Counted from the first letter of the stretch, positions 14,171 through 59,922 are shown. The stretch is DNA of 64,000 nucleotides from Bacillota bacterium (GCA_017443515.1 JAFRXM010000024.1:12031-76030), one strand, 5' to 3'. Notes: generated by a model not told the origin, from the letters alone. Made by a program: numbers and translations.

Positions 14171-17038
14171 TTATCTGTTGTTAAGGACGTATTCCTTGAT
14201 CTTGCTTACGCCTATGTACTTGCTGACGTTCTCGCCTTCGATGATGACGGCTGTGGGCGCCTGCATTATTCCGAAGCTTCTTGCCAGAGCGCGGTTCTCC
14301 TCTGCGAGGACGAGCTCGTACTCGGTGCCCTGCTGGGCCAGGAATTCCTTGATGATGGCGCAGTTGGGGCAGGTGCGCGTGGTGAAGAGCAGGAAACGCT
14401 TTGCAGGAACTTCTGCAACGGGTTCCTCGGCAACAGGTTCTTCTGCTACCGGCTCCTCGGTTACTGGCTCTTCTGCGAGCTCTTCCCTGGCTGCCTGAAG
14501 CTCTTCTTCTACAGCCTTGGCCTGATCCGCTTCTTCGTACTGCTTAGCCAGCGCTTCGGCGTCGACCTTCTCAAACCTGTGTGTTTGTGCGGGCACTTCC
14601 TGTACCGGCGCTTCTTCTGCGGGCTCTTCGTAAGCCTTAGCGAGCTCTTCAGTCTTAACTTCGTATGCCTTTGCGAGGTCCTCGGCGTTTGCGTAGATCT
14701 TCTCTACCGCCTTGGGAGTGGGTGTTGCTGCTACTGCTGCGACAGGAGCTTCTGCTTCCTGGACCGCTTCGTAAGCTTCCTCGACTGCCGCCGCAGCTGC
14801 TGCTACGATCTCGGGAGCAACTTTTGCCTCGAAGCTCGCCTTGGGGCCAAGAGCGCCGTCCGGCTCACAGATATTGATCTTTGCTGCCGGCGCTTCCGCC
14901 GCAGGAGCTTCTGCCTCGACCTTGGTGAGGGGCTCTTCTATGTGAAGGTTGCTGTGTCTTCTGAAGGAGGTGCCTATGTCGTAGGTCTTCCTCTGCTTGA
15001 ATTCCTGGGCTTTTCCGTCGTTCCAGTTCTGCACCGGGCGATAGTAGCCTGTGATGCGGCTGTAGATCTCGGTCTTCTCACCGCACTCCGGGCAGACGCC
15101 TACTTCGCCAGCGATATACCCGTGGTTCTTGCAGACGGAATACGTGGGCGATATGGTGTAATACGGCAGCCTGTAGTTTTCAGCTATGGTGCGCACCAGT
15201 GTGGCCGCGGCCTTCCAGTCGGGCAGTTTCTCACCCAGGAAGGCGTGGAATACGGTGCCGCTGGTGTAGAGGGTCTGCAGCTCGTCCTGAACGTCCAGAG
15301 CCGCGAAAACGTCCTCGGTGTAGCCTACCGGCAGGTGGCTGCTGTTGGTGTAGTACGGTGTGCCGCCGCAGTCCGCCGCGGTGATGATGTTGCCGAAGCG
15401 CTTCACATCGTGCTTTGCGAGGCGGAAAGCGGTAGATTCAGCCGGGGTAGCCTCCAGGTTGAACAGGTCGCCGTACTGCTCCTGATAGTCGGAGAGGCGC
15501 TCTCTCATGTGGTTGAGCACTTCGATGGCGAACTGCTGAGTCTCCTTGTGGGTCATGTCCTTCTTGAGCCACTTGGCGTTGAGGCCTACTTCGTTCATGC
15601 CGACGAGGCCTATGGTGGAGAAGTGGTTCGCGAAGGTGCCCAGGTACCTCTTGGTGTAGGGATAGAGGCCTTCCGCGAGCAGCTGGCTTATTACCCTGCG
15701 CTTGATGTCAAGAGATCTTGCTGCGATGTCCATCATGTGGTCCAGGCGCTTGTAGAACTCTGCCGGAGTTTCGGAGAGGTAAGCTATGCGCGGCATGTTG
15801 ATGGTGACAACGCCGATGGATCCGGTGGACTCGCCGCTTCCAAAGAAGCCGCCGCTCTTCTTTCTGAGCTCTCTGAGGTCCAGACGGAGCCTGCAGCACA
15901 TGGAACGCACGTCGGAGGGCTCCATGTCGGAGTTGATGTAGTTGGAGAAGTACGGAGTGCCGTACTTGGCGGTCATCTCGAAGAGAAGCTTGTTGTTCTC
16001 CGTCTCGGACCAGTCGAAGTCCTTGGTAATGGAGTAAGTGGGGATAGGATACTGGAAGCCGCGGCCGTTGCAGTCGCCCTCGATCATGAGCTCGATGAAG
16101 GCCTTGTTGACCATGTCCATTTCCTTCTTGCAGTCGCCGTAGGTGAAATCCATCTCCTTGCCGCCGACTATCGCCTTCTGATCCTTAAGATCGGCAGGAA
16201 CTGTCCAGTCCAGGGTTATATTGGTGAAGGGAGCCTGGGTGCCCCAGCGCGACGGAGTGTTGACGCCGTACACGAAGCTCTGGACGCACTGCTTGACTTC
16301 TTTATATGTTAAGTTGTCGGCCTTTACGAAGGGGGCCAGATATGTATCAAAGGAGCTGAAAGCCTGCGCGCCTGCCCACTCGTTCTGCATGATACCGAGG
16401 AAGTTCACCATCTGGTTGCAGAGGGTGGAAAGGTGGCTTGCCGGGGAAGAGCTGATCTTGCCGGGAACTCCGCCAAGGCCTTCCTGGATGAGCTGCCTGA
16501 GGCTCCAGCCTGCGCAGTAGCCTGTAAGCATGGAAAGGTCGTGGAGGTGGATGTCCGCATTCTTGTGAGCCCTGGCGATCTCGTCATCGTAGATCTCGGA
16601 GAGCCAGTAGTTGGCGGTGATGGCGCCGGAGTTGGAGAGGATGAGTCCGCCGACGGAGTAAGTTACGGTGGAGTTCTCCTTGACGCGCCAGTCGGACACC
16701 TTGAGGTAGCTGTCCACCAGGGACTTGTAGTCCAGAGTGGTGGTGTTGATGTTTCTCAGCTTTTCTCTCTGGCGCCTGTAGAGGATGTAGGCCTTGGCCA
16801 CGTCGTCGTAACCGGCCTTGATGAGCGTGGATTCCACGCAGTCCTGGATGTCCTCGACTGTGATGAGGTTGTCCTTGATCTTCGGCTCGAATTCCGAAGT
16901 TACTTTCAGCGCGAGGAGGTCTATCACCTGCGGGTGATACTGCTTCTCCTGCGCTTCGAACGCCATTTTAATAGCGTTTGAGATCTTTGTGAGATCGAAA
17001 TCTACGACCTTACCGTCTCTCTTCTGTACCTGATACAT
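14171..17038 (-). CDS. nrdD: anaerobic ribonucleoside-triphosphate reductase fused to a C-terminal glutaredoxin-like domain
   Basis: ATP-cone MYQVQKRDGKVVDFDLTKI. C-terminal Zn/glycyl-radical region CPECGEKTEIYSRITGYYRPV. Then a roughly 190-aa Ala/Glu/Pro linker (14402-14971) and a CxxC thioredoxin-fold domain (FTTRTCPNCAIIKEFL, 14174-14401). The AGGAG RBS supports the ATG at 17038. Confidence 0.9.
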   Translation of the reverse strand: MYQVQKRDGKVVDFDLTKISNAIKMAFEAQEKQYHPQVIDLLALKVTSEFEPKIKDNLITVEDIQDCVESTLIKAGYDDVAKAYILYRRQREKLRNINTTTLDYKSLVDSYLKVSDWRVKENSTVTYSVGGLILSNSGAITANYWLSEIYDDEIARAHKNADIHLHDLSMLTGYCAGWSLRQLIQEGLGGVPGKISSSPASHLSTLCNQMVNFLGIMQNEWAGAQAFSSFDTYLAPFVKADNLTYKEVKQCVQSFVYGVNTPSRWGTQAPFTNITLDWTVPADLKDQKAIVGGKEMDFTYGDCKKEMDMVNKAFIELMIEGDCNGRGFQYPIPTYSITKDFDWSETENNKLLFEMTAKYGTPYFSNYINSDMEPSDVRSMCCRLRLDLRELRKKSGGFFGSGESTGSIGVVTINMPRIAYLSETPAEFYKRLDHMMDIAARSLDIKRRVISQLLAEGLYPYTKRYLGTFANHFSTIGLVGMNEVGLNAKWLKKDMTHKETQQFAIEVLNHMRERLSDYQEQYGDLFNLEATPAESTAFRLAKHDVKRFGNIITAADCGGTPYYTNSSHLPVGYTEDVFAALDVQDELQTLYTSGTVFHAFLGEKLPDWKAAATLVRTIAENYRLPYYTISPTYSVCKNHGYIAGEVGVCPECGEKTEIYSRITGYYRPVQNWNDGKAQEFKQRKTYDIGTSFRRHSNLHIEEPLTKVEAEAPAAEAPAAKINICEPDGALGPKASFEAKVAPEIVAAAAAAVEEAYEAVQEAEAPVAAVAATPTPKAVEKIYANAEDLAKAYEVKTEELAKAYEEPAEEAPVQEVPAQTHRFEKVDAEALAKQYEEADQAKAVEEELQAAREELAEEPVTEEPVAEEPVAEEPVAEVPAKRFLLFTTRTCPNCAIIKEFLAQQGTEYELVLAEENRALARSFGIMQAPTAVIIEGENVSKYIGVSKIKEYVLNNR

Positions 17039-17104
17039 TGCTTTGCTCCTTATATGTAAAATTTTATGATTAGACATAAAAATAGACCAAAATCGGTTAT
17101 TTCT

Positions 17105-22061: not shown

Positions 22062-22784
22062 ATGAAAATTGCAGGAATACAGAAATTAACGCTTTTAGAC
22101 TTCCCGGGGCGCTGCGCCGCGACTATATTCACACCAGGATGCAATCTGCGCTGTCCGTTCTGCCACAACGCTTCGCTGGTAGACCCCAGCTACGTTCAGC
22201 AGACCATAGAGCACAACGAGCTCATAGAGCCTGAAGAGGTCCTGGAGTTCTTAAAGGAACGATTCGGAAGGCTCACAGGCCTTGCCGTAACAGGAGGAGA
22301 GCCCCTGATGCAGCCCGGTATCATGGAGTTCCTGCAAAAAGTAAAGGAGCTTGGCTACGCCGTAAAGCTCGACACCAACGGCACCAACCCCGAAAGGCTG
22401 CGCGCTCTGCTGTCTGCGGGCATAGTGGATTACGTCGCCATGGACTTTAAAAACTGCCGCGAAAAGTACGCTCTTACCACCGGGATCTCCGAAAGCTCCG
22501 CGGCCATACTCTACGAAAGCACCCTGCTGTCGGCTGATTTCATCAAAAAAAGTGGCGTGGAATATGAATTCCGCACCACTGTTGTAAAGCAGTTCCACAC
22601 CGTGGACGATATACGCGCCATAGCCAGGGCTCTGGCCGGCGTTCCGAAGTATTTCCTGCAGTGTTTCGAGGATTCCGGCGACATTCTCGGCGGCGAGTAC
22701 GCTGCCTGCAGCAAGGAAACGATGCACGAGATGCTGGCAGCCGCCCGGGAGTTCGTCCCGAACGCGCAGCTAAGAGGCATGTAA
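22062..22784 (+). CDS. nrdG: anaerobic ribonucleotide reductase activating protein
   Basis: MKIAGIQKLTLLDFPGRCAATIFTPGCNLRCPFCHN carries a radical-SAM CxxxCxxC. Also GLAVTGGEPL. Confidence 0.85.
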   Translation: MKIAGIQKLTLLDFPGRCAATIFTPGCNLRCPFCHNASLVDPSYVQQTIEHNELIEPEEVLEFLKERFGRLTGLAVTGGEPLMQPGIMEFLQKVKELGYAVKLDTNGTNPERLRALLSAGIVDYVAMDFKNCREKYALTTGISESSAAILYESTLLSADFIKKSGVEYEFRTTVVKQFHTVDDIRAIARALAGVPKYFLQCFEDSGDILGGEYAACSKETMHEMLAAAREFVPNAQLRGM

Positions 22785-51788: not shown

Positions 51789-51850
51789 GAAACACGCCCT
51801 GAAGATTTATCATGAAATTAGTAATAGTATACAATCGTTATTGGGGGCAC

Positions 51851-52519
51851 ATGAAGCTTTCATCTTTCCTGCACTTTGCAGGCTTTGGCATAAAGACCAT
51901 ACTGTTTAAGAAGAAGGATCCACTCCTGGGGACGGTAATCGTCACCGACAGGTGCAATCTGCACTGCAAACACTGTTCCGTCAACAACATCACCGCTGTC
52001 ATGCATCCGTACAAACAGCTGCGCAGCGAGATGCAGCAGCTCTACGATATGGGAGTCAGGATCCTGTTTTTCTGCGGCGGCGAAACTTTTCTCTGGCAGG
52101 ACGGTGAGCTTACGATAAAAGACCTGGTCGCAGAAGCTAAACGAATGGGCTTCCTGATCGTAAACGTGGTTACGAACGGCACCTTCCCGATCGACCTTCC
52201 GGAGGCGGATCTGATACTCCTGAGCCTGGACGGAGACCGGCAGCGACACAACGAGATCCGCGGCGACACCTACGACACCATCATGGAGAATATCCGCAAC
52301 GCCACAGCGGACAACATCTGCCTCTACATGGCGGTCAACCAGATCAATAAGGACTGCATACAGCACGTGTGCCGGACAGCCCGCGACACAAAGAATATCC
52401 GTGCGGTGTCCTTCAATTTCCACACGCCTTATCCGGACACCCGCAAGCTTGCGCTCAGCCGGGACGAAAAGGCTGCCTGCTGCGCTGAGATCACCCGGAT
52501 GATGAATGTACGGTCTTGA
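51851..52519 (+). CDS. radical SAM protein, probably C-terminally truncated
   Basis: TDRCNLHCKHCSV is a CxxxCxxC motif. Also FFCGGETFL and LLSLDGDRQRHNEIRG. At 222 aa it is shorter than relatives with this layout, as I recall them. Confidence 0.6.
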   Translation: MKLSSFLHFAGFGIKTILFKKKDPLLGTVIVTDRCNLHCKHCSVNNITAVMHPYKQLRSEMQQLYDMGVRILFFCGGETFLWQDGELTIKDLVAEAKRMGFLIVNVVTNGTFPIDLPEADLILLSLDGDRQRHNEIRGDTYDTIMENIRNATADNICLYMAVNQINKDCIQHVCRTARDTKNIRAVSFNFHTPYPDTRKLALSRDEKAACCAEITRMMNVRS

Positions 52520-52694
52520 GCTTTGGCTCGCAGAGCGTTTTGGATGGGTAAACAAAAGCGGCGGCACCTACGAGCTTACGCTGAAAGGCGCCTACCACTA
52601 TCACTACTATGAAAACTTTTATACACTGGCCTACATCGATAAAATGTGGGGCATCATGCGTAGGGAAGCGTTCCCGGAACGTATTAAACTATAA
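52506..52694 (+). CDS. 62-aa ORF, possible gene fragment
   Basis: MYGLELWLAERFGWVNKSGGTYELTLKGAYHYHYYENFYTLAYIDKMW... It overlaps the preceding stop in another frame. An in-frame TGA lies directly upstream, so it is not a simple frameshift continuation. Confidence 0.25.
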   Translation: MYGLELWLAERFGWVNKSGGTYELTLKGAYHYHYYENFYTLAYIDKMWGIMRREAFPERIKL

Positions 52695-55055: not shown

Positions 55056-56168
55056 ATGGAAGAAACAAGACCCTTTTTAGACTGGAAACTGGCGCACGAT
55101 TTTATGGTCGATGTATTCGTAAAGTACGGCGTACCCAGAGAAGACGCGGAGATCTGCACGGACGTTCTTCTTGAGAGCGACCGCCGCGGCATCGAGAGCC
55201 ACGGATGCAACCGCTTCAAGCCGATCTACCTGGACCGCATAAAGAAAGGCACGCTGCTGCCTGTCACCAAGATCGACATCGTAAAGGAGACCCCGACGAC
55301 TGTCGTCATGGACGCCAACAACGGCATGGGCATGGTAGCAAGCTATAAGATGATGGAGATGCTGATCGAGAAGGCAAAGACCTACGGCATGGCCGGCGGC
55401 ACCATCATGAACTCCACCCACTACGGCATAGCCGGCTATTGGACCACGATGGCTGAAAAGGCCGGAATGATAGGCATCAGCGGCACCAACGCAAGGCCTT
55501 CTGTTGCGCCTACGTTCGGCGTAGAGCCCATGATGGGGACCAACCCGATGACGTTTACGATGCCCACCGACGAGCCTTTCCCGTTCAACCTGGACTGCGC
55601 GACCTGCATAGTGCAAAACGGCAAGATAGAATTCTACGCAAGGCAGGGAAAACCCACGCCCGAAGGCTGCGTAATAAGCGAGACCGGCGAGACCATGACC
55701 GAATCCGCCAAGATACTTAAGGATATGCGCGCAGGACACGCCGCGCTGCTGCCGCTTGGCGGCCCCGGCGAGGACACCGCAGGCTACAAGGGCTACGGAT
55801 ACACCACGGTAGTCGAGATCCTTTCCGCCGCTCTGGCAGGAGGCCCGTTCCTTAAGGCTCTGTCCGGCGTAGCCGAAGACGGAAGCCCGCAGATGTACAG
55901 GCTGGGACACTTCTTCTTCGTCATCAACCCCGAGTTCTTCATGGGGCTTGATACATTCAAAAAGACCGCCGGCGAGATCTGCCGCGGCCTTAGGAACTCG
56001 AAGAAGGCGCCGGGAGCCGAGCGCATCTACACCGCAGGCGAGAAGGCCTACGAGAACTGGCAGTTCCGCAAGGACAAGGGCGTGCCCGTCGGCGAAGCCA
56101 TCCAGAAGGAATTCATCCAGCTGCGCGACGAATGCGGCCTCACCCAGTATCACTTCCCGTTCGAATAA
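55056..56168 (+). CDS. Ldh2-family (malate/L-lactate/ureidoglycolate dehydrogenase-type) oxidoreductase
   Basis: 370 aa: ESDRRGIESHGCNRF...GTNPMTF..P...ALLPLGG...GYKGYG. Confidence 0.7.
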   Translation: MEETRPFLDWKLAHDFMVDVFVKYGVPREDAEICTDVLLESDRRGIESHGCNRFKPIYLDRIKKGTLLPVTKIDIVKETPTTVVMDANNGMGMVASYKMMEMLIEKAKTYGMAGGTIMNSTHYGIAGYWTTMAEKAGMIGISGTNARPSVAPTFGVEPMMGTNPMTFTMPTDEPFPFNLDCATCIVQNGKIEFYARQGKPTPEGCVISETGETMTESAKILKDMRAGHAALLPLGGPGEDTAGYKGYGYTTVVEILSAALAGGPFLKALSGVAEDGSPQMYRLGHFFFVINPEFFMGLDTFKKTAGEICRGLRNSKKAPGAERIYTAGEKAYENWQFRKDKGVPVGEAIQKEFIQLRDECGLTQYHFPFE

Positions 56169-56177
56169 AAAAAATAT

Positions 56178-56204
56178 GGTGGAGAGGGACGGTTCCTCTC
56201 CACC
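56178..56204 (+). repeat. loop-conserved hairpin repeat, GGTGGAG-stem class (copy K), terminator-like
   Basis: GGTGGAGAG-GGACGGTTC-CTCTCCACC has a 9-bp stem flanked by an A-tract and TTTTTTATT. It lies 9 nt after the plus-strand gene's stop and 4 nt after the minus-strand gene's stop. Confidence 0.9.
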
Positions 56205-56208
56205 TTTT

Positions 56209-57150
56209 TTATTCTGCCATCAAGTGCATGGCGCGAAGCTGCGGGTCGGCGATGCGGCTCTGCACTTCCTCCGCGTGCTGCAAAAGAAAATCTGAAGGGG
56301 AGGCCGAAAGGCCTTCCTTTTTCAGTTCGGCTATCACATCGGCGCTGATGGATTCGATGATGTCCACCTTCTCGTGGAAGGACGCCGGCGCGCAATCTTT
56401 AGCGTCCGAAAGAAGCTCTATCTGCGGAGCGATCTTTCCGCCAAGGACCGGCAGCTGCTTCATGGCCCTGTGAGCCCACTTGTAGTACGGACGGTAGCGC
56501 TTGTTCAGCAGGAACACTATAGCCTGCACGTGGTCCACGAACTCGGCGCAGGCAAGGAACGCCGCCACGAACTCGCCGCGGTGCGCGCACCTTGCGTAGT
56601 TGTACTGCCCGGACTGAGCCGCCATAGCGCAGCGCATCGCAAGCTTTTTGAGGCGCAGGTCCTCGGGATAAAATGCCAGAAGCCCCTCGCGGATGTCCGA
56701 GAACTCCTTGTTGTTGTTGAGGAACAGCTCGCCGTTGGTGGCCACGGCAAAGCCCTTTTCCGCCGCGCAGCGCCATTCGAAAATGCTCTGTGGAACCCGG
56801 TCGAAGCCGGTGTACCTGGCGTAGAAACTGCCGCTGCTCATGACGCCTACGCGCCCGCCGGTCTGGGCCGACACGTTGAGCCTGCGAAAGCCCATGTAGC
56901 TTTCCGGAAGCACGTTGTATATGCCAGAAGCCAGCCCGCCGAACTCCTGCATGTCGGCGTCGGTGAGCCACACGCAAAAGCCCGGGCCCCAGTCGTGGTC
57001 GCGGGATATCTCGTCGTCAAAGCCGTAGCACTCCGAGCCTTCGCCGACAAGGCCAACCGTGGCCTTTTCAAGCACCTGCGGGCAGCTCTTCTCGAAGGCC
57101 GGGCGGCCCACTTCTTCCCAGTATTTCCTTGAAAGTTCAAGTCCCTTCAT
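56209..57150 (-). CDS. nucleotidyltransferase-fold protein (DUF4037-like)
   Basis: Pol-beta-type motif: GLVGEGSECYGFDDEISRDHDWG. The C-terminal half is helical. The DUF assignment is from memory. Confidence 0.45.
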   Translation of the reverse strand: MKGLELSRKYWEEVGRPAFEKSCPQVLEKATVGLVGEGSECYGFDDEISRDHDWGPGFCVWLTDADMQEFGGLASGIYNVLPESYMGFRRLNVSAQTGGRVGVMSSGSFYARYTGFDRVPQSIFEWRCAAEKGFAVATNGELFLNNNKEFSDIREGLLAFYPEDLRLKKLAMRCAMAAQSGQYNYARCAHRGEFVAAFLACAEFVDHVQAIVFLLNKRYRPYYKWAHRAMKQLPVLGGKIAPQIELLSDAKDCAPASFHEKVDIIESISADVIAELKKEGLSASPSDFLLQHAEEVQSRIADPQLRAMHLMAE

Positions 57151-57164
57151 TTCAGTTCCTTTCT

Positions 57165-57190
57165 GTGACAGAGAACCGTCCCCCTGTCAT
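57165..57190 (-). repeat. loop-conserved hairpin repeat, GTGACAG-stem class (copy L)
   Basis: GTGACAG-AGAACCGTCCCC-CTGTCAT. The TPR gene's stop (57187-57189) is the TGA of the stem. Confidence 0.9.
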
Positions 57191-57993
57191 ATCTTTGATT
57201 CTGCTTCTTTGAGGTTGCGGGCTGTGGCGACGTACTCGCGGTGCTCTTTGTTGTAGTAGCGCTCGCAGTATACCAGAGCCGAGCGGAACCAGTCCGCGGC
57301 TTCTTTAAACCTTCCGGTAGCCATGCAAACAAGCCCCAGGCTGTTCAGGATCGCGTGGTAGTGCGGCGTGAACGTGTCGCAGAGCCTGTTCTCGTAGACG
57401 TCCTTTGCCTCAAGCAGGTTCTTCTCGGCGTCTTCGTAGCGCTCAAGCTGCCTGTAGAGCTCTGCGGTATTCGTAAGCGAAGTAGCGTACTCGTCAAGGT
57501 GCTCCGGAAGCTCCGCCAAAATGTCCGAAGCCTCTTTAAGGTACGCCGCTGCTCTGTCTGTCTGACCCTTATCCAGCGCCACGAGCGCCACGTTGTTGAG
57601 CCCCGCCGAATACAGTATGTGATGCCGTCCCACGGTGTTCTCGTAGATCCTGAGGCACTCCGCGAAGCCCTCCTCAGCCTTGTCGAACTCGCGCATCTGG
57701 CGGTAAGACCCGGCGCGGTTGTTCACGCAGGTAGCGTAGTCCGGAGACATCGGCCCGTTCAGAGCCTTAAGGATCTCCGCCGCCTTAGTAAAACACGCCA
57801 CGGACTCGTCGTACCTTGTAAGCCCGCGGTAAAACCCGCCCAGCTCCGAAAGCATCGAAGCGTAGATGGCACTGCCCTCCCCTTCGTTTTCCTTCGCAAG
57901 CTCGCAGGCACGCTTTATCTCGGACTCTATGATCTGGTTGTCCTCCGTCCCGTAGGACTTATCCACTATGCTGAAATAATCCCTGATATCCAT
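57187..57993 (-). CDS. tetratricopeptide-repeat protein
   Basis: 268 aa. It has repeated about 40-aa A/Y/L-rich helical pairs (e.g. ATCVNNRAGSYRQMREFDKAEEGFAECLRIYE). Confidence 0.6.
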   Translation of the reverse strand: MDIRDYFSIVDKSYGTEDNQIIESEIKRACELAKENEGEGSAIYASMLSELGGFYRGLTRYDESVACFTKAAEILKALNGPMSPDYATCVNNRAGSYRQMREFDKAEEGFAECLRIYENTVGRHHILYSAGLNNVALVALDKGQTDRAAAYLKEASDILAELPEHLDEYATSLTNTAELYRQLERYEDAEKNLLEAKDVYENRLCDTFTPHYHAILNSLGLVCMATGRFKEAADWFRSALVYCERYYNKEHREYVATARNLKEAESKI

Positions 57994-58061
57994 AGCTGAC
58001 CTCGTATATATTGTCCAAAAAAATCAATCGGTATCATCCTCTTTTTGTACATTCTATCATT

Positions 58062-58089
58062 TTACAATTCGCTCCTCAACTGATATAAT
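58062..58089 (+). promoter_or_regulatory. candidate promoter of the activase gene
   Basis: TTACAA (58062-58067), a 16-nt spacer, then TATAAT (58084-58089). Confidence 0.4.
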
Positions 58090-58129
58090 CATAATGCAAA
58101 GTGGTTTTTTAAGTGACTAAGGAGAGAAT

Positions 58130-59080
58130 ATGAGTTTCGAAGTAAATTACGATGTTACCTGTCCGGTATTCAACATCCAGACCTACAGCATTCACGACGG
58201 CCCCGGCATCCGCACAACAGTCTTCGTAAAAGGCTGCCCGCTGCGCTGCCTGTGGTGCGCAAACCCCGAATCCAACCTGGCAAAGCCTCAGCTTATGACT
58301 TACTCCAGCAAGTGCACAGGCTGCGGACAGTGCCTGCCCAAGTGCCCCAAGGGCGCCATCTCCATAGGCCCCTACGGCGAAGGCGAGAGCCTCAAATATA
58401 TCGCTATCACAGACCGCACCAAGTGCGTGGACTGCGGCGCCTGCGTAAAGGTCTGCCCGGCTGAAGCCCGCGAGATCGCAGGAAAGACCATGACAGTCCG
58501 CGAAGTCATCGATAAAGTCAAGAAGGACAAGCTCTTCTACGACGGTTCCGGCGGCGGCATGACGGTCTCCGGCGGCGAGCCTCTTGCTCACCCGGATTTC
58601 GTGGCCAACCTCATGGCAGCGGCTCACGCAGAAGGCATCACCACCTGCATCGAGACCAGTTCGTTCGGATCCCGCGAGGCAGTCGACAAGATCTACCCGC
58701 ACGTAGACCTGGCCCTTCTGGACGTAAAGCACATGGACAACACCACCCACGAAAAGCTCACCGGCGTGCCCAACACCTACATCCTTGAGAACATCAGGCA
58801 CATCGCGCTGGATCTTAAGGTGCCCGTCATCATCCGCGTCCCGACCATGCCCGGCTATAACGACAGCCCGGAGAACATAATCGCGACAGCCAAGTTTGCC
58901 CAGACCCTGGGCGATAACGTCCTGGTGAACCTGCTGCCCGCCCACAAGCTCGGCGAAAGCAAGAACGAGAGCCTCGGCATCGCAAACAGGTGCACCATCA
59001 CAGTGCCAACCGACGAATACATGCAGAGCCTCAAGAAGCTGGTGGAAGAAGCCGGCTCCCCCTGCAAGATCGGCGGCTAA
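58130..59080 (+). CDS. glycyl-radical enzyme activating protein (long, two-ferredoxin-motif type)
   Basis: IHDGPGIRTTVFVKGCPLRCLWCANPE, plus CTGCGQCLPKCP and CVDCGACVKVCP, plus VSGGEPL. Confidence 0.85.
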   Translation: MSFEVNYDVTCPVFNIQTYSIHDGPGIRTTVFVKGCPLRCLWCANPESNLAKPQLMTYSSKCTGCGQCLPKCPKGAISIGPYGEGESLKYIAITDRTKCVDCGACVKVCPAEAREIAGKTMTVREVIDKVKKDKLFYDGSGGGMTVSGGEPLAHPDFVANLMAAAHAEGITTCIETSSFGSREAVDKIYPHVDLALLDVKHMDNTTHEKLTGVPNTYILENIRHIALDLKVPVIIRVPTMPGYNDSPENIIATAKFAQTLGDNVLVNLLPAHKLGESKNESLGIANRCTITVPTDEYMQSLKKLVEEAGSPCKIGG

Positions 59081-59125
59081 GCCCGGACTAAAAAGCCTCC
59101 GGCTCAACTGAAAGGAGAACAGACA

Positions 59126-59809
59126 ATGGATAAGAAAGCTTTAATAGAAGAGATCGTAAAGAAAGAATGGCCGATGTTCCACAACGTCAACGGCGAAGAC
59201 CGCGTAGACTGCCAGGAAGACCCGACCACCTTCTACAACATGCGCACAGCCCAGTTCGATGTCTGGAACGAAGACGCGCTCGAAAGCTACAACAAGGATC
59301 TTGACGCCGCCATCGAGGCAGGCCGCAGCCTTGTAAAGGAAAAGTACATCTGGATGATGGAACACACCGATCCTAAGGGCTTTGAGGCATTCAAGGGCCT
59401 CCTGCCGGAAGTTTCCGAAAAGACGAACGCTCTCGTGGCCGACATCTGGAAGATCATGCTTGAGCAGACCGAAGAGCTCCGCAAGACCTACCCGCTTCTG
59501 GCTCTGGGCGGTCGCCCGCTGCACGCTTCCGAAGAGAAGGAATGGGCCTCCATCGAGACCTACCAGACCAGCGAGCTGCGCACCTTCTCCGAAGCCACAC
59601 TGGAAAAGCTCCTCGCCCACATCAAGGCCATGAAGGAAGCCGGAGAAGACTTCGTCTACAAGATCCAGGAAAACTCCGTCACCTGCCTTGGCTACAAGGA
59701 CATGAAGGAAGCTGAGATCGCCATGATGGGCCAGCTCATGAACGAGATGGGCATCACCGTCGAGGCCGACTGCCCCTCCTGCATGAAGGGATTCGACGAC
59801 GCAGAATAA
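59126..59809 (+). CDS. DUF4125-like protein, function unknown
   Basis: 227 aa, acidic and helical. MDKKALIEEIVKKEWPMFHNVNGEDRVDCQEDPTTF... The family is assigned from memory. Confidence 0.4.
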   Translation: MDKKALIEEIVKKEWPMFHNVNGEDRVDCQEDPTTFYNMRTAQFDVWNEDALESYNKDLDAAIEAGRSLVKEKYIWMMEHTDPKGFEAFKGLLPEVSEKTNALVADIWKIMLEQTEELRKTYPLLALGGRPLHASEEKEWASIETYQTSELRTFSEATLEKLLAHIKAMKEAGEDFVYKIQENSVTCLGYKDMKEAEIAMMGQLMNEMGITVEADCPSCMKGFDDAE

Positions 59810-59810
59810 C

Positions 59811-59837
59811 GGTGGAGAGGGACGGTTCTCCTCCACC
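59811..59837 (+). repeat. loop-conserved hairpin repeat, GGTGGAG-stem class (copy M)
   Basis: GGTGGAGAGGGACGGTTCTCCTCCACC. It starts 1 nt after the stop of the plus-strand gene. Confidence 0.9.
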
Positions 59838-59859
59838 AAACATCCAATCATACCAAATC

Positions 59860-59892
59860 AAAATGGCTCGGATCCTTGTCCGGGCCATTTTT
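59860..59892. terminator. bidirectional intrinsic terminator bracketed by repeats M and N
   Basis: AAAATGGCTCGGA-TCCTTG-TCCGGGCCATTTTT. Confidence 0.65.
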
Positions 59893-59919
59893 GGTGGAGG
59901 AGAACCGTCCCTCTCCACC
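59893..59919 (-). repeat. loop-conserved hairpin repeat, GGTGGAG-stem class (copy N)
   Basis: GGTGGAGGAGAACCGTCCCTCTCCACC. It is the exact reverse complement of M. It ends 3 nt before the stop of the minus-strand gene. Confidence 0.9.
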
Positions 59920-59922
59920 GCC

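Follow-up and report, generated by a model that had tools for sequence, protein, structure and literature searches.

What does the activase of a glycyl radical enzyme (GRE) act on when its gene lies far from any such enzyme and among genes of other families? This question is raised by a locus of a Bacillota bacterium at positions 56209-59809 of a window of 64,000 nucleotides (the whole stretch of DNA that was analysed, C67:12031-76030 of the assembly). Here, an activase gene splits a set of three genes lying within 3.6 kb, which encode a tetratricopeptide repeat (TPR) protein, a DUF4037 protein and a DUF4125 protein and are referred to below as the triad. In gut and rumen microbes, GRE reactions yield trimethylamine (TMA) from choline, p-cresol and skatole, and break down sulfonates and hydrocarbons. 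Characterised activases of the TIGR02494 type are encoded beside one cognate GRE; to our knowledge, the activation, upkeep and regulation of GREs beyond this one-activase-per-enzyme model are poorly known. As a whole, the locus is best explained by a hub activase accompanied by a triad that acts as an accessory unit of GREs, a combination that we regard as fairly probable. The four genes are as follows:

56209-57150, minus strand: DUF4037 protein, 313 amino acids (PF13228, 113.7 bits)
57187-57993, minus strand: TPR protein, 268 amino acids (TPR_12, 126.6 bits), leading the leftward TPR-DUF4037 pair
58130-59080, plus strand: activase, 316 amino acids (TIGR02494, 335.5 bits; curated subfamily cut-off, 174.35)
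59126-59809, plus strand: DUF4125 protein, 227 amino acids (PF13526, 200.3 bits)

An earlier note on this DNA, made from the sequence alone, had placed the four open reading frames at these coordinates, with the activase gene co-directional with the DUF4125-like gene and divergent from the TPR gene and a nucleotidyltransferase-like gene. Coordinates and strands agree with that description, and all of its family assignments were upheld by Pfam and NCBIfam.

Judged by its motifs, the 316-residue protein is a genuine non-PFL-type (not pyruvate formate-lyase-type) GRE activase, for which glycyl-radical formation is predicted. The radical S-adenosylmethionine (SAM) motif CX3CX2C occurs as CPLRCLWC at residues 36-43 (PF04055, 61.7 bits), and the protein also contains two ferredoxin-like CX2CX2CX3CP motifs, CTGCGQCLPKCP and CVDCGACVKVCP, with matches to Fer4 and Fer4_7. 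Both kinds of motif had been named in the earlier note in support of the same classification. The protein scores below every NCBIfam equivalog cut-off, the best being that of the trans-4-hydroxy-L-proline dehydratase activase model (324.7 bits versus 425); the equivalogs covered were the activases of trans-4-hydroxy-L-proline dehydratase, indoleacetate decarboxylase and 4-hydroxyphenylacetate decarboxylase together with HpsH/HpfH, CutD and BssD. A search with PF02901 found no PFL-like GRE inside the window, as the note had claimed, every match being outside. The other glycyl-radical pair of the window, also correctly noted, consists of NrdD (14171-17077, minus strand) and NrdG (22062-22784, plus strand). 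The nearest GRE, at C67:103174, is truncated by the end of the contig that also bears the activase, from which it lies approximately 31 kb downstream.

The rest of the genome is rich in candidate partners. The assembly (1.94 Mb, 73 contigs, 91% complete) contains 17 PF02901 matches, 13 of which are full-length GREs of 797-816 amino acids ending in RV/IAGY or RVGGF motifs. Fragments at the end of C68 and the start of C66 share an identical overlap and represent one further gene; those at the end of C67 and the start of C70 overlap with substitutions and represent one or two further GREs. The total is 15-16 GREs on at least seven contigs, including eight on C66, of which four stand back to back. 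Outside the window, they are located at C66:2-36600, C48:11953-16774, C40:17369-19798, C34:6376-8769, C28:49827-52232, C70:2-12439 and C67:103174-104658. Pairwise identity among these enzymes ranges from 29 to 89%, with a median of 44%. All eight that were tested against known enzymes fell below the cut-off of the PFL2-3 subfamily (480-505 bits versus 678) and below all equivalog cut-offs. A Cys-x-Asp thiyl loop is present in 11 of the 13 full-length sequences, at the position where dehydratases have Cys-x-Glu.

Against this number stands a single activase above the TIGR02494 cut-off in the genome, namely that of the window. No second activase was found in the whole assembly either with TIGR02494 or with phmmer using the activase as query, the weak leftovers being ferredoxin-like stretches and NrdG, and no activase was found in the flanks of the 13 complete GRE loci (several kb of flank each). 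Because it is the only activase found, and none of the complete GRE loci has an activase of its own, the protein most likely activates all of the GREs in trans and would thus be the shared hub of the genome. Sharing of one activase in trans is also consistent with the gene counts of other genomes of the genus. For example, G011 (98% complete) encodes a single GRE and, on another contig, a single DUF4125-linked activase; G012 encodes four GREs and two activases, and G019 encodes seven GREs and two activases. In G007 and G018, GRE, activase and DUF4125 genes are all absent. The earlier note had called the activase an orphan, a misleading label for the sole activase of a GRE-rich genome. However, its suggestion that the protein works in trans on a distant enzyme is strongly supported, on the larger scale of 15-16 GREs without their own activase, now that the listing and pairing of GRE and activase genes that it had proposed has been carried out. 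The note had further held that a cognate enzyme elsewhere without its own activase, together with a neighbourhood not conserved in other genomes, would speak against its reading; such enzymes do exist, but the neighbourhood is conserved, both in adjacency and in fusions.

Several features of the GRE loci can be recorded here. The run of four back-to-back GREs spans C66:26907-36600, and the GRE at C70:9989-12439 combines Cys-Val-Trp with RVGGF. Repeated sets of three genes, encoding proteins of approximately 490, 415 and 565 amino acids, flank the GRE arrays (C66:2641-7108, C48:2520-6961, C48:7412-11852 and C48:19658-21450), and the middle protein of these sets starts with MALxDFxPMQERCSNCSFCKWIPFDK.

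The three genes surrounding the activase form one conserved unit, a conclusion of which we are nearly certain. In an evenly drawn sample of 401 genomes of the phylum, DUF4125 was found in 16, and all 16 have a strong DUF4037 match within 3 kb; the usual arrangement is that of direct neighbours in the order TPR, DUF4037, DUF4125. When the species genomes of GTDB were scanned with an alignment of DUF4037, 80 loci were obtained, from Bacillota, delta-proteobacterial/Thermodesulfobacteriota lineages, Dehalococcoidales, Spirochaetes, Cloacibacillus, Prevotella and Actinomycetota. DUF4125 adjoins DUF4037 in 61 of these loci, and a TPR domain is adjacent or fused in 45 on a first count, with a shorter TPR gene in 12 more. 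A profile search for DUF4125 in 1.84 billion representative proteins returned 1,489 clusters at 50% identity. About one quarter of the best 150 clusters are 690-1,030 amino acids long, and Pfam identified fusions among them: TPR-DUF4037-DUF4125 (P0245, P0287, P0294 and P0318), DUF4037-DUF4125 (P0258 and P0316), TPR-DUF4125 (P0252) and DUF4125-TPR (P0335). We conclude that these proteins function jointly, being neighbours in many phyla and joined in fusions of all combinations. Hence, the alternative raised in the earlier note, that these small proteins form an uncharacterised system using a radical-SAM activase, is supported for the TPR, DUF4037 and DUF4125 proteins. As for the use of the activase, the data show a statistical genomic link of the triad to GRE and activase loci, and most triads have no adjacent activase. 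A literature search found no paper that gives DUF4125 or DUF4037 a function or a link to GREs.

An extended short-chain dehydrogenase/reductase (SDR; PF01370, NAD-dependent epimerase/dehydratase, approximately 314 amino acids) is encoded between or beside DUF4037 and DUF4125 in 16 of the 80 loci (L050, L051, L057, L062, L064, L071, L078, L083, L085, L097, L101, L104, L105, L111, L123 and L127). This SDR may be a fourth component of the unit, and its presence hints at a small molecule linked to a nucleotide.

The layout with DUF4037 and TPR genes on one strand and the activase gene followed by the DUF4125 gene on the other is found in the window and its relatives. In the window and in all 10 same-genus genomes with DUF4125, the activase gene lies inside the unit, and all 10 DUF4125 genes of the genus stand directly downstream of an activase gene. 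The closest named records with the same layout are the goat-omasum metagenome-assembled genomes (MAGs) RGIG2928 and RGIG2909 (L048 and L049), whose activases are approximately 85% identical. A related contig, L021, has an activase gene (82% identical) directly followed by DUF4125 with neither TPR nor DUF4037 nearby, and the insertion of the activase into the triad is therefore a lineage-specific variant of a more general proximity of triads and GREs.

Evidence for that general proximity comes from co-occurrence, from gene distance and from the composition of individual loci. Non-PFL activases, called in the phylum sample with TIGR02494 at E <= 1e-80, are present in 126 of the 401 genomes. The co-occurrence analysis that the earlier note had called for found them in 15 of the 16 DUF4125-positive genomes versus 111 of the 385 others (Fisher p = 1.8e-7); at genus level, the figures are 8 of 9 versus 85 of 262 (p = 1e-3). 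A GRE or activase lies no more than 10 kb from the unit in 11 of 20 DUF4125-positive genomes. From the number of GRE loci and the genome sizes, 0.64 would be expected, and a count of 11 was not reached in any of 2 million simulations. Of the 80 GTDB loci, 22 contain a GRE or activase in the fetched flanks; of the 32 whose flanks are complete, 12 have one at a distance of 10 kb or less. The neighbouring GREs belong to several classes. They include CutC (choline TMA-lyase) in microcompartment loci (L037, L039, L044 and L092; >1,600 bits), the sulfopropanediol dehydratase HpsG (L090), PFL2-3 subfamily members (L034 and L046) and uncharacterised enzymes (L068, L084 and L127).

Compact strings of these genes also occur. 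The order TPR-DUF4037-DUF4125-activase-GRE is found in Christensenella sp. Marseille-P2438, a cultured organism (L068; LT700187.1, around 1.416-1.432 Mb). An Anaerovoracaceae MAG (L098) has the order GRE-activase-TPR-DUF4037-DUF4125, and a Peptococcaceae MAG (L084) has DUF4125-activase-GRE. The unit of delta-proteobacterial/Thermodesulfobacteriota MAGs belongs to clusters that also encode a GRE, a BssE-like AAA+ ATPase, a VWA protein, enoyl-CoA hydratases, a CoA ligase and a carboxyltransferase. This context is matched by the gene order of the limonene degrader Syntrophobacteraceae LiM6, in which bssE is followed by lrcL (DUF4125) and lrcM (DUF4037); LrcL and LrcM were both detected at the protein level while limonene was degraded through a GRE, and the authors describe their function as unknown (PMC12583861). 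Taken as a separate claim, a functional connection between the triad and GREs has the evidence slightly in its favour. Since GREs of several classes are involved, the link points to a general role around the activation or upkeep of these enzymes rather than to a substrate-specific step. As a side observation, the GREs of two loci (L034:12400-15012 and L046:10066-12624; 852-870 amino acids) adjoin TPR-DUF4037 fusions, and their best PFL2-3 alignment stops near residue 600 of the protein, as would be expected if the C-terminal half were divergent or an insertion were present.

In the DUF4037 protein, a nucleotidyltransferase domain of the Pol-beta type forms the N-terminal part and a helical, DUF4037/KNTase_C-like domain the C-terminal part. 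It contains the nucleotidyltransferase motif GS-x11-DxD (G38-S39-x11-D51-H52-D53; GEGSECYGFDDEISRDHD), and across 68 homologs G38, S39, D45, D46, D51, H52 and D53 are invariant. Because the motif is invariant, the enzyme is probably active. A sequence search of the PDB gave no match at E <= 1. Its AlphaFold2 model (pLDDT 94.6) was matched by Foldseek to 3c18 (8e-4), 6p06, 1kan, 3jyy and 8vxb with probabilities of 0.75-1.0 and TM-scores of 0.34-0.53, i.e., to a nucleotidyltransferase-like protein from the Joint Center for Structural Genomics (JCSG; 3c18), the kanamycin nucleotidyltransferase ANT(4'), LinB and ANT(6). Anantharaman et al. placed DUF4037 and KNTase_C in one group, described it as a HEPN-like domain without catalytic function that is "occasionally fused to TPRs", and listed this clade as being without the catalytic HEPN Rx4-6H motif (Anantharaman et al., 2013; PMC3710099). 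An MNT-HEPN toxin-antitoxin system was considered and is not supported, given that the Rx4-6H motif is missing, that DUF4125 has no invariant or near-invariant (>=90%) histidine and that the context is metabolic.

The DUF4125 protein, modelled with AlphaFold2 as an all-alpha structure (pLDDT 94.1, pTM 0.89), found no convincing counterpart in the PDB, either with Foldseek (best E 1.2, TM < 0.25) or by sequence (no match at E <= 1). Going by this model, it is a domain without a relative among solved structures. In 67 homologs, E14, R40, K73, Y74, P123, Y146 and E150 are invariant, and C29 and Q30 nearly so.

Three other readings compete with a hub activase and an accessory triad. The activase might be no hub at all, if dedicated activases were missing from an incomplete, metagenome-derived assembly and the one in the window served a single partner. 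The assembly is indeed 91% complete and in 73 contigs, such that the portion not assembled could encode another activase, which weighs against a hub, and some same-genus genomes carry a second, GRE-adjacent activase (G012 C15 and G019 C194). Yet more than ten activase genes would all need to fall in the missing 9%. None flanks any of the 13 complete GRE loci, including those of the eight GREs on the single contig C66; near-complete relatives have no more than two activases for up to seven GREs, and G011 pairs exactly one GRE with one DUF4125-linked activase from a separate contig. This reading is accordingly judged improbable. It is far harder still to credit that DUF4125 is itself the substrate of the activase, as a small glycyl-radical carrier or spare part akin to GrcA/YfiD. 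The gene order invites the idea: the activase gene is followed on the same strand, after 45 nt, by the DUF4125 gene in the window and in all 10 same-genus DUF4125 genomes, and L021 keeps the order of activase, then DUF4125. The earlier note had proposed checking the protein for a motif resembling that of glycyl radical proteins; there is no RVxG motif, no invariant glycine among the 67 homologs and no match to PF01228 (Gly_radical), and the confident all-alpha model is unlike the C-terminal domain of GREs. Moreover, DUF4125 adjoins DUF4037 rather than an activase in most genomes and is often the C-terminal domain of a nucleotidyltransferase fusion. On the grounds of motif, family match and model, a role as carrier was rejected.

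The most serious competitor, although still unlikely, separates the triad from GREs altogether and regards it as a general small-molecule nucleotidyltransferase system of strict anaerobes that modifies antibiotics or metabolites; nearness to GREs would then follow from a common anaerobic lifestyle, and the activase would have been placed by a chance rearrangement in the genus. Several findings count against the connection with GREs and in part favour this reading. The sampled genomes are phylogenetically related, so that the Fisher p-values overstate their independence, and at genus level p is 1e-3. About 60-70% of triad loci, including 20 of the 32 with full flanks, have no GRE or activase within 10 kb. 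The DUF4125-positive genome G455 has a PflA-type activase only, and G123 has an activase (TIGR02494, E = 1.8e-101) and a triad but no PFL-like GRE at E <= 1e-30; its activase would be a true orphan if the genome is complete. On some contigs, MATE efflux and TetR genes stand beside the triad or DUF4125, which would also fit a small-molecule- or drug-modifying role. In addition, the fold of DUF4037 is nearest to the aminoglycoside and lincosamide enzymes ANT(4'), LinB and ANT(6), and the SDR (Epimerase family) inserted in 16 of 80 loci hints at small-molecule chemistry. On the other side, the observed proximity exceeds random expectation approximately 17-fold (11 versus 0.64), and co-occurrence with activases (15/16) contrasts with a background of 29%. 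The link spans several GRE types and at least two phyla, the TPR domain suggests a protein partner, and LrcL and LrcM are expressed with a GRE pathway, their genes following bssE. The genomic context does not suggest aminoglycoside or lincosamide nucleotidylylation by the DUF4037 protein.

If the triad is an accessory factor of GRE systems, a mechanism can be sketched. The activase would install the glycyl radical in trans on 15-16 paralogous GREs, most of which have the Cys-x-Asp loop. The DUF4037 enzyme, similar to kanamycin nucleotidyltransferase and scaffolded by the TPR protein, would attach a nucleotide to a hydroxyl group. Candidate targets are the GRE, the activase, DUF4125 with its two invariant tyrosines, or a small molecule made around GRE activation; in each case, the outcome would be that GRE activation is tuned or protected. 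The nucleotidylylation target is pure inference, which must be held against the proposal, and a small molecule is still a possible target because of the SDR inserted in 16 of the 80 loci. Protein nucleotidylylation as the mechanism of the triad is thus offered tentatively and is more probably wrong than right. The same doubt attaches to its specific form, in which a TPR-targeted nucleotidyltransferase might reversibly AMPylate or otherwise nucleotidylylate the GRE, the activase or DUF4125 and thereby gate or protect radical activation.

Within its known family, the activase is an ordinary protein, and it is the one-to-many layout that is unusual; the Pfam families of the triad are known only as DUFs. 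A rumen-type genome of 1.9 Mb with 15-16 GREs and one activase offers a natural test case for activase promiscuity, and a hub activase would open a route to the in vitro activation of orphan GREs. The association with GRE loci provides the first testable functional hypothesis for the triad families and points to a cultured carrier of the compact string, Christensenella sp. Marseille-P2438. If true, the proposed mechanism would constitute a new layer of post-translational control across CutC, HpsG, X-succinate synthases and further GREs, and in this genus the control unit would be wired directly to the hub activase of 15-16 GREs.

The intergenic elements of the locus are as follows:

56178-56204, no strand: hairpin repeat GGTGGAGAGGGACGGTTCCTCTCCACC with A- and T-runs on its flanks, scoring as a bidirectional terminator of an Ldh_2 gene (plus strand) and the DUF4037 gene (minus strand)
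57163-57190, no strand: hairpin repeat of a second type (TGACAG stem, AGAACCGTCCCC loop) in the 36-nt spacer between the TPR and DUF4037 genes
57994-58129, no strand: divergent control region of 136 nt with two overlapping promoter-like sites, consensus matches only
58061-58089, plus strand: promoter-like site for the activase gene, TTTACA-17-TGnTATAAT, a consensus match
58079-58051, minus strand: promoter-like site for the TPR gene, TTGAGG-17-TAGAAT, a consensus match
59811-59838 and 59893-59920, no strand: two inverted hairpin-repeat copies around a terminator-like hairpin at approximately 59865-59887

From these sites, the activase gene is predicted to be transcribed together with the DUF4125 gene, divergently from TPR-DUF4037. 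The 45-nt spacer between activase and DUF4125 contains an AAGGAG ribosome-binding site and no terminator. The hairpin copy at 57163-57190 overlaps the stop codon of the TPR gene, and the stretch 59811-59920 lies where the DUF4125 gene converges with its next neighbour, a minus-strand gene. The repeats that the earlier note had seen at three of the four gene ends were thus located (56178-56204, 57163-57190 and 59811-59838, the last with its inverted partner), and no hairpin repeat was found at the 3' end of the activase gene. As a family, these repeats are REP-like (resembling repetitive extragenic palindromes), with the core GGGACGGTTC and two stem types, and mark gene ends at all four positions.

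Upstream in the window lie further genes. An Ldh_2-family dehydrogenase (55056-56168, plus strand; 384.6 bits), whose top NCBIfam match is L-sulfolactate dehydrogenase (228.7 bits versus a cut-off of 500), has the bidirectional terminator in common with the DUF4037 gene. A radical SAM protein of 235 amino acids (51812-52519, plus strand) falls below all NCBIfam cut-offs, its best match being Tes-like (tetraether lipid synthase, 40 bits), and a 62-residue open reading frame (52506-52694, plus strand) overlaps the end of its gene.

Comparison with known systems places each component. The non-PFL GRE activases of TIGR02494, such as CutD, the trans-4-hydroxy-L-proline dehydratase activase and HpsH, have the same length and radical SAM motif as the activase of the window, which also has their DGPGIR-type N-terminus and two ferredoxin-like auxiliary cluster motifs. 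Unlike CutD/HpsH-type members, it scores below the equivalog cut-offs, lacks an adjacent GRE and is the sole activase for 15-16 GREs. A precedent for one activase with several glycyl-radical proteins is Escherichia coli PflA, which serves PflB, TdcE and GrcA and, like the hub proposed here, has several GRE-type substrates that are encoded at other sites and activated in trans. However, PflA is a short PFL-type activase without the ferredoxin-like insert that the protein of the window carries. Its clients are close PFL-type proteins, whereas the 15-16 clients here are 29-89% identical and belong to an uncharacterised Cys-x-Asp branch.

For the triad, the nearest structural relatives are ANT(4')-Ia, LinB, ANT(6) and 3c18, which have in common with the DUF4037 protein a two-domain build of a GS...DxD Pol-beta domain and a helical, non-catalytic HEPN-like domain (Foldseek probability 0.89-1.0), at 9-12% identity and TM-scores of 0.34-0.53. 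Unlike these enzymes, DUF4037 is always partnered or fused with TPR and DUF4125, occurs in strict anaerobes and is linked to GRE loci. The architecture of the proposed TPR-nucleotidyltransferase unit is comparable to that of TPR-Fic AMPylases and GlnE. Among accessory proteins, the BssE-type AAA+ (MoxR/CbbQ-like) putative GRE chaperones are likewise non-catalytic components of GRE clusters and occur with the triad in Desulfobacterota loci; they are ATPases of a fold unrelated to the nucleotidyltransferase, and this type is not found in the window. A further parallel is provided by LrcL and LrcM of LiM6, which represent the same two families and are encoded by adjacent genes. LiM6 differs in that it belongs to another phylum, its GRE is a fumarate-adding succinate synthase and no activase gene lies between lrcL and lrcM.

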